DNA of 15,734 nt from Escherichia coli. GTDB taxonomy: Bacteria; Pseudomonadota; Gammaproteobacteria; Enterobacterales; Enterobacteriaceae. A model generated the notes under the pieces. The model worked only from the letters and a program-made list of their open reading frames with translations. It was not told the DNA's origin and searched no databases. The position numbers and the translations under genes were made by a program. The stretch lies in NCBI RefSeq assembly GCF_003334355.1, contig NZ_QOWP01000050.1. The stretch is one strand, 5' to 3'. Positions 13,092 to 13,916 of this stretch are shown here, piece after piece (the first letter of the stretch is position 1; the number at the start of each line of letters is the position of its first letter).

Positions 13092-13916
13092 ATGACCGAA
13101 TTTACAACTCTTCTTCAGCAAGGAAACGCCTGGTTCTTCATCCCCAGCGCCATCTTACTTGGTGCGCTTCATGGCCTGGAACCAGGGCACTCAAAAACGA
13201 TGATGGCGGCGTTTATCATCGCCATCAAAGGCACCATTAAACAAGCGGTGATGCTCGGACTGGCAGCAACTATTTCGCATACCGCAGTGGTCTGGTTAAT
13301 TGCCTTTGGCGGGATGGTGATCAGCAAGCGCTTTACTGCTCAATCAGCAGAACCGTGGCTCCAGCTGATTTCCGCAGTGATCATTATTAGCACCGCGTTC
13401 TGGATGTTCTGGCGTACCTGGCGCGGCGAACGCAACTGGCTGGAGAATATGCACGGGCATGATTATGAGCATCATCATCACGATCACGAACATCACCACG
13501 ACCATGGACATCATCACCATCACGAACATGGCGAGTATCAGGATGCCCATGCACGAGCCCATGCCAATGACATTAAACGACGCTTTGATGGTAGAGAGGT
13601 CACCAACTGGCAAATTTTGTTATTTGGCTTAACCGGTGGCCTTATCCCCTGCCCGGCAGCAATTACCGTGCTGTTGATATGCATTCAGTTGAAAGCCCTG
13701 ACACTGGGCGCAACACTGGTCGTCAGTTTCAGCATTGGCCTGGCGTTAACGCTTGTCACCGTAGGCGTTGGCGCAGCAATCAGCGTTCAGCAGGTCGCAA
13801 AACGCTGGAGCGGATTTAACACTCTCGCTAAACGCGCCCCCTATTTTTCCAGTCTGTTGATTGGCTTAGTCGGTGTGTATATGGGCGTACATGGCTTCAT
13901 GGGCATAATGCGATAA
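13092..13916 (+). CDS. rcnA: Nickel/cobalt efflux permease with histidine-rich loop
   Basis: 274-aa membrane protein with central His-rich loop (HGHDYEHHHHDHEHHHDHGHHHHHEHGEY); divergent from rcnR. Confidence 0.9.
   Translation: MTEFTTLLQQGNAWFFIPSAILLGALHGLEPGHSKTMMAAFIIAIKGTIKQAVMLGLAATISHTAVVWLIAFGGMVISKRFTAQSAEPWLQLISAVIIISTAFWMFWRTWRGERNWLENMHGHDYEHHHHDHEHHHDHGHHHHHEHGEYQDAHARAHANDIKRRFDGREVTNWQILLFGLTGGLIPCPAAITVLLICIQLKALTLGATLVVSFSIGLALTLVTVGVGAAISVQQVAKRWSGFNTLAKRAPYFSSLLIGLVGVYMGVHGFMGIMR

Follow-up and report, generated by a model that had tools for sequence, protein, structure and literature searches.

Low-complexity tracts of histidine, aspartate and glutamate, such as those found in the loops of the CDF/ZnT/MTP exporters and in HypB, SlyD and Hpn, are thought to bind or buffer transition metals near the site of their transport or delivery. 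A tract of this general composition lies within RcnA (YohM), whose His-rich region was described together with the gene by Rodrigue et al. (2005), who also reported that the K-12 protein, identical to the one considered here, confers Ni(II)/Co(II) efflux and resistance; for both points we follow the accounts of that work given in PMC5183578, PMC11445613 and PMC3391293. In Salmonella, the 6-bp VNTR known as STTR5 (synonyms: SENTR5, SE-5 and VNTR-19) sits in yohM, "between two domains of YohM"; its alleles have 8–14 repeats in the mid-range and up to 26, their copy number shifts within 50 generations in vitro, and an (HD)9 block has been lost on in vivo passage (PMC5183578, PMC2430564, PMC6760104, PMC3391293). 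The MLVA locus 27 of Klebsiella pneumoniae is likewise a 6-bp unit within rcnA, present in 0–19 repeats (PMC3948817), and clinical Klebsiella carry in-frame rcnA insertions that add H, D and E residues (PMC11445613). The cable-bacteria RcnA has an expanded loop, with 100–123 aa and 33–53 His (PMC11247825). The variability of the loop length is already known and is in use for strain typing; in the literature, no gene assignment was found that links the E. coli MLVA loci CVN014, O157-17/VNTR-17 or Z3274 to the rcnA tract.

[quoted passage not shown] This gene identity, initially assigned from the letters of the sequence, was confirmed in several ways. The CDS is 100% identical to the rcnA of E. 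coli K-12 over 825/825 nt, and the same is true of many other strains. The protein belongs to the NCBIfam family NF007454 (nickel/cobalt efflux transporter), which it matches over residues 1–274 with 559.2 bits against a cut-off of 195, and in precomputed annotation the proteins identical to it carry the Pfam domain NicO (PF03824). The neighborhood has the organization of an RcnA-type locus and agrees with RefSeq records: the Ni/Co-responsive repressor gene rcnR is divergent from rcnA (12699..12971, − strand, an entry of the ORF list; RefSeq rcnR WP_000019944.1 lies at the equivalent relative position), and downstream is rcnB, the accessory periplasmic subunit (14135..14473, + strand; an ATG is read at 14135, and the RefSeq rcnB is 339 nt long and starts 219 nt past the end of rcnA). 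Further out, thiM lies upstream and yehA downstream of the rcnR-rcnA-rcnB group. The rcnR-rcnA intergenic region contains two near-identical inverted-repeat elements, TACTGGGGGGTAGTA (13020-13034) and TACTGGGGGGGAGTA (13040-13054), which we take to be putative RcnR operator sites of the rcnA promoter, given their match to the pattern TACT-G6-N-AGTA of the RcnR sites described there. The annotation "nickel/cobalt efflux protein RcnA" is carried by 5,366 of the 5,426 complete E. coli genomes. On the whole of the evidence, the segment under study is very probably the central His-rich cytoplasmic loop of RcnA, a NicO-family Ni(II)/Co(II) efflux protein, and at the population level a coding VNTR.

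That the segment is a loop had been claimed before, and both the hydropathy profile and a structural model agree. Residues 108–175 are the sole long hydrophilic stretch of RcnA and lie between hydrophobic helices; the eight K/R residues at the edges of this stretch, taken together with the positive-inside rule, suggest that the loop is cytoplasmic. For the cable-bacteria homologue, DeepTMHMM predicts a cytoplasmic central His-rich loop, an arrangement that was called the canonical RcnA architecture (PMC11247825). Our AlphaFold2 (AF2) model of full-length RcnA, built from an alignment of 29 sequences, is of moderate quality (mean pLDDT 66.8, pTM 0.52). It has a helix at residues 83–122, no secondary structure and a pLDDT below 50 at 123–147, a helix of low confidence at 148–165 and another helix at 172–182. 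The hydropathy, the 19 His residues and this model together give RcnA the central His-rich hydrophilic loop between transmembrane helices that is typical of the family. Since the full-length model is only moderate, it suggests, without doing more, that the variable part of the loop is disordered. A sequence search of the PDB with RcnA found no genuine homologue and no structure of a close NicO/RcnA relative; its three weak matches, two to sirohydrochlorin cobaltochelatase (8i56, 6m25) and one to a bacteriocin-type protein, all arose through the His-rich/loop region (query residues 67–184) and were rejected as low-complexity false homology.

At the heart of the loop is the 40-residue peptide HGHDYEHHHHDHEHHHDHGHHHHHEHGEYQDAHARAHAND, which corresponds to residues 121–160 and to nucleotides 13452..13571 in the rcnA frame. 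The earlier note had quoted this peptide exactly, but had placed it at 13450..13568, a shift of 2–3 nt at each end. Histidine makes up 19 of these 40 residues, as against 4 of the 234 in the rest of the protein (binomial P ~2e-23), and 17 His are found in residues 121–148. The codons CAT (12), CAC (7), GAT (3), GAC (2), GAA (2) and GAG (2) account for 28 of the 40. The description of these codons as near-repetitive fits most of the segment. TRF, applied to the window, finds at 13473..13529 (+ strand) an imperfect tandem repeat with a period of 18 nt, about 3.2 copies, 76% matches and a score of 79, its consensus being CATCATCACGATCACGAA, which reads HHHDHE. A repeat search returned four 21-nt copies at spacings of 15, 18 and 18 nt, and those that begin at 13473, 13491 and 13509 have a mutual identity of 81–95%. 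The head-to-tail repetition is nonetheless imperfect: the longest perfect tandem in the K-12 allele, which is that of the window, is only 12 nt (TCACGA ×2). The description does not hold for the last 13 codons (EYQDAHARAHAND), which are non-repetitive and part of a conserved motif. The repetition in the window is thus genuine but decayed, an interrupted array of 6- and 18-nt units. Composition, the positions of indels and the AF2 model together delimit a variable H/D/E-rich low-complexity tract at residues 121–147 (13452..13532, + strand), which is the part of the loop that changes in length.

Directly after this tract stands the conserved motif EYQDAHARAHANDIKRRF (residues 148–165; 13533..13586, + strand), which was recognized by alignment and which the AF2 model predicts to be a helix leading towards the next transmembrane segment. 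Among 29 sequences that range from E. coli to homologues from Rhizobium and Pseudomonas, H153 is invariant, and conservation reaches 90% or more at D151, A152, H157, A158, I161 and F165; the full motif is still recognizable in Vibrio and Verrucomicrobium, and no E. coli allele departs from its length. In the interval first noted, the C-terminal third is not a repeat but a conserved HxxxH-bearing motif that is distinct from the variable tract. The H153/H157 pair, spaced i, i+4, would be more likely than the variable tract to form a specific metal site.

The earlier note had also suggested that the length of the loop may vary from strain to strain, and this proved correct: in-frame differences occur both within E. 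coli and between species of Enterobacterales, and the rcnA alleles compared fall into several length classes rather than one. In a sample of 59 full-length rcnA genes, evenly spread over 5,366 genomes, 52 genes were 825 nt long and six were in-frame variants of 804, 810, 846, 846, 852 and 858 nt (one 846-nt variant has an altered stop and aligned over 849 nt); the last of the 59 (L001) was a pseudogene with a 22-bp frameshift deletion outside the loop. When 221 nt of the K-12 type, spanning the loop segment, were used as the query, 5,364 genomes matched, 4,692 of them at an identity of at least 95%, 185 at 90–95% and 487 at 80–90%. In the even sample, the K-12 length was found in 51 of the 52 rows at 95% identity or above, and every row below 95% was a length variant. 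The loop length thus differs from that of K-12 in about 12.5–14% of the 5,364 complete E. coli genomes and is the same in about 87%, frequencies that are approximate, as they derive from identity bands and even samples of 60 rows and carry the bias of complete genomes, among which O157:H7 is over-represented. Counted from NWLE to DIKRRF, the modal E. coli loop is the 41-aa one of K-12, and the range extends from 28 aa (L046) to 67 aa (P0076), with 46 distinct loop sequences among the best 120 protein clusters. The in-frame indels of 12 sequenced E. coli variant alleles all fall within ~13455..13533 in K-12 coordinates; variants sequenced beyond the even sample of full-length genes differ by −39, −33, −3 and +15 nt.

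The tract does not have the character of a phase-variable on/off switch, since its repeat units (6, 9, 18 nt and so on) are all multiples of 3. Frame loss in the 12 sequenced length-variant alleles came to one case inside the tract, a 1-nt deletion in an annotated pseudogene (L044), and one elsewhere in the gene, the 22-bp deletion of L001. In another genome (H120, NZ_CP138397.1), an IS3-family element abuts the His tract, the match beginning at window position 13487, and in a further one (H60, NZ_CP047455.1) rcnA has undergone a near-complete deletion that leaves 111 nt beside yehA. In these four cases rcnA has been inactivated, as occasionally happens in natural E. coli isolates. A further 60 of the 5,426 E. 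coli genomes are without any rcnA match.

Length polymorphism between strains in steps of the size of a repeat unit was most evident in two types of allele with pure hexamers, each of which was isolated by means of an E-value cut-off, together with identity bands and even sampling. In 235 genomes the allele is of the O157:H7 type, (GACCAC)n, which encodes (DH)n; with the (GACCAC)6 segment as the query, 133 of them reach an identity of 99% or more. In an even sample of 60, the segment was 248 nt long in 36, 254 nt in 18, 242 nt in five and 260 nt in one; these lengths mostly correspond to n of 6, 7, 5 and 8, respectively, but four rows of lower identity (248 or 254 nt) may be other allele subtypes. 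Sequences confirmed the alleles with n of 5, 6 and 7, and the segment length points to n = 8 in the longest; the O157-type loops measure 46–54 aa. Several O157-type segment lengths occur among the cattle isolates of one accession series, and such multiplicity of lengths in the young O157:H7 clone implies that slippage is frequent. The second type, (GCACGA)n encoding (HE)n, with n of 4–5 confirmed by sequence, was found in 125 genomes, in 85 of which the segment is 200 nt long and in 40 of which it is 206 nt, that is, one unit more.

The purity of the repeat follows the same division, for the longest perfect tandem is 12 nt in the K-12 allele as against 24–42 nt in the variable E. coli alleles. 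The K-12-type length is retained in the bulk of the sampled genomes, including O25b:H4, O111:H8 and K-12 strains. Rare derivatives of the K-12 type do exist, with duplications of 6, 18, 27, 36 and 54 nt and a 39-nt deletion between units of the 18-nt period, which indicates that the decayed repeat is not inert. The earlier suggestion that such repeats are prone to in-frame expansion or contraction thus holds for the pure hexamer alleles, but less so for the allele of the window, which is without a perfect tract, modal and length-stable. Length change is concentrated mainly in the alleles with perfect hexamer tracts. We consider it highly likely that the loop changes in units of 3n nucleotides, and does so fast in pure tracts and slowly in the interrupted K-12 form.

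A broader comparison was made with 29 homologues among the matches listed in a collection that holds one genome per species. Their loops are between 30 and 169 aa long. That of Escherichia albertii has 40 aa, one codon off the K-12 type. Perfect GACCAC tracts recur in Pseudocitrobacter faecalis (×12), Pluralibacter (×8) and Hafnia paralvei (×11), and the longest perfect tandem in these three genera is 48–72 nt. In some homologues the loop is poor in His; those of Enterobacter sp. Bisph1 and BIGb0383, for instance, have 7. The rcnA locus of Salmonella and Klebsiella was absent among the cross-species matches listed; both genera are covered by the literature cited above.

A separate observation emerged from this comparison. 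Many RcnA homologues contain, within the His-rich loop, a conserved insert of ~90 aa with the signature DTGHG.VELSI...PEPH.F.V.LSLGH.GH.HDY. Its carriers belong to Hafnia, Rahnella, Cedecea, Erwinia, Tatumella, Edwardsiella, Mangrovibacter, Vibrio and Verrucomicrobium; an example is L036:1885-2178, which corresponds to residues 129–226 of the Cedecea neteri RcnA, and others are found in L020-L022, L025-L030, L032-L034 and L037. Pfam gave no match to the insert in the insert-bearing RcnA, where NicO was found at residues 13–130 and 213–368 only. The AF2 model of the insert is a confident all-beta structure of nine strands (pLDDT 88.8, pTM 0.80). A Foldseek comparison of this model with the PDB returned generic Ig-like beta-sandwiches only, none of them at E ≤ 0.001; the best were BhCBM56 and the Helicobacter pylori copper-resistance protein CrdA (TM 0.63), with CopC at 0.51. 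The insert, placed as it is in the loop of the transporter, is possibly a metal-binding domain not described before, and provided that the topology is that of E. coli, it would lie in the cytoplasm.

A simple scheme very probably accounts for these features. The RcnA loop consists of two parts, the first being a probably disordered low-complexity H/D/E tract (residues 121–147), in whose DNA units of 6 and 18 nt form a decayed array, and the second the conserved, presumably helix-forming motif with its invariant His. In E. coli as in other Enterobacterales, the tract behaves as a coding VNTR, in which replication slippage or unequal exchange between units 3n long would add or remove HD, HE or longer blocks with the reading frame kept. 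Perfect hexamer tracts change quickly, and the K-12 allele is an interrupted, comparatively stable form of modal length. The unit-sized nature of the differences points to slippage or unequal exchange as the probable mechanism. Judging from its composition and from the literature, the tract plausibly binds Ni/Co in RcnA. We infer that most of the changes in its length are functionally tolerated rather than adaptive.

One alternative to such tolerance is adaptive tuning, in which the length of the loop is a selected knob: additional His/Asp units would raise Ni/Co binding, buffering or the rate of transport, and the lengths found in different lineages would fit their exposure to metals. The preservation of the reading frame in almost all variants agrees with this idea; however, frame preservation is automatic with units of 6 and 18 nt, which suffice to explain it. 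The existence of lineage-specific expansions, such as the 46–54 aa of the O157-type loops and the 100–123 aa of the cable bacteria, can also be cited in its favor, as can the 41-aa length common to the bulk of the sampled E. coli and the 40 aa of E. albertii, which could reflect stabilizing selection. But a 2.4-fold range of lengths within one species, with several of them in a clone as young as O157:H7, has the look of a microsatellite drifting neutrally, and homologues such as those of Enterobacter sp. Bisph1 and BIGb0383 have few His in their loop. Metal selection, or stabilizing selection on the length of STTR5, has been proposed (PMC3391293, PMC5183578), but no phenotype data were found, and the idea that copy number reflects metal selection or affects resistance is put forward in PMC3391293, PMC5183578 and PMC11445613 as speculation only. 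We therefore regard adaptive tuning as rather unlikely. A bolder form of it, in which the loop length would be a selected and rapidly evolving Ni/Co rheostat, with pure tracts kept in O157:H7, Salmonella and Klebsiella for fast adjustment and the K-12 form "locked" at an optimum, appears to us highly doubtful. A linker that tolerates change, and whose length drifts neutrally or almost so, accounts for the data no less well than length tuning.

If, on the other hand, the length classes were errors of assembly or polishing in low-complexity DNA, there would be no real variation to explain. The 1-nt deletion within the tract of L044 could indeed be a long-read error. Yet identical discrete lengths turn up in independent complete genomes by the tens to hundreds (133 matches to the (GACCAC)6 segment, and 40 and 85 for the two lengths of the (GCACGA)n allele), the differences are exact multiples of the 6-nt unit, and both MLVA fragment sizing and Sanger data from Salmonella and Klebsiella show like behavior (PMC5183578, PMC2430564, PMC3948817), all of which makes an artefactual origin extremely improbable.

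The repeat is also overlapped by two other open reading frames of the ORF list, and the earlier note had called one of them, an antisense ORF of 89 aa (13344..13613, − strand) with a TTG start, an artefact of the repeat. This judgment was upheld when the codon register was examined. The codons of the antisense ORF are in register with those of rcnA, so that antisense stops arise only from sense TTA, CTA or TCA codons. In rcnA these occupy positions 22, 34, 69, 85, 177, 180, 219 and 259, and the 91-codon gap between codons 85 and 177 holds the 40 His/Asp/Glu-rich codons, the other gaps being of 2–39 codons. The antisense frame is open because His, Asp and Glu codons give no in-register antisense stops. 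The ORF is present in the window, has no Shine-Dalgarno-like sequence upstream and is annotated as a CDS in none of the 12 RefSeq records inspected. The second ORF, of 57 aa (13459..13632, + strand, +1 frame, beginning MIMSIIITITN), is a compositional artefact as well, and L044, the pseudogene allele with a frameshift, is read in its frame. Neither of the two frames is interrupted within the repeat, as would be expected if either encoded a selected Met/Val-rich or Ile/Thr-rich product, but this openness is fully explained by codon content, the bounds of the antisense ORF are the nearest sense TCA and TTA codons, and this ORF, with its TTG start and neither a ribosome-binding site nor annotation in the RefSeq records inspected, shifts in length with every loop allele, so that we give a real overlapping gene practically no credence. 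As codon content accounts for the open frame, the antisense candidate was rejected.

The present results are of little importance beyond confirmation, for descriptions of the RcnA His-rich loop go back to 2005 and its repeat variability is behind routine MLVA loci of Salmonella and Klebsiella. What is added here is a rough census in E. coli (modal length 41 aa, range 28–67 aa, rapid change confined to pure hexamer alleles) and the separation of the conserved HxxxH-bearing motif from the variable tract.

Among the systems that can be compared with this locus, the CDF/ZnT/MTP exporters, HypB, SlyD and Hpn have folds and families unrelated to those of RcnA. The cable-bacteria RcnA shares the same protein architecture with an expanded His-rich loop; its expansion, however, is fixed throughout a clade of a distant lineage and is not a strain-level polymorphism. 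MLVA locus 27 of K. pneumoniae, taken here from the literature, is like the E. coli tract a coding hexamer VNTR in rcnA and is used in typing, although its unit, as written in PMC3948817, is CATGGT. A close counterpart is STTR5 of Salmonella, where the His-rich inter-domain loop of the same gene likewise contains an in-frame His-Asp hexamer whose copy number is strain-variable and changes within tens of generations; the positional orthology of the two tracts is taken from the published descriptions. The K-12 allele of the window departs from this pattern, as it is without a perfect hexamer tract (its longest perfect tandem is 12 nt) and is length-stable in about 87% of the genomes, whereas the O157-type (GACCAC)5-8 of E. 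coli behaves like the Salmonella STTR5.
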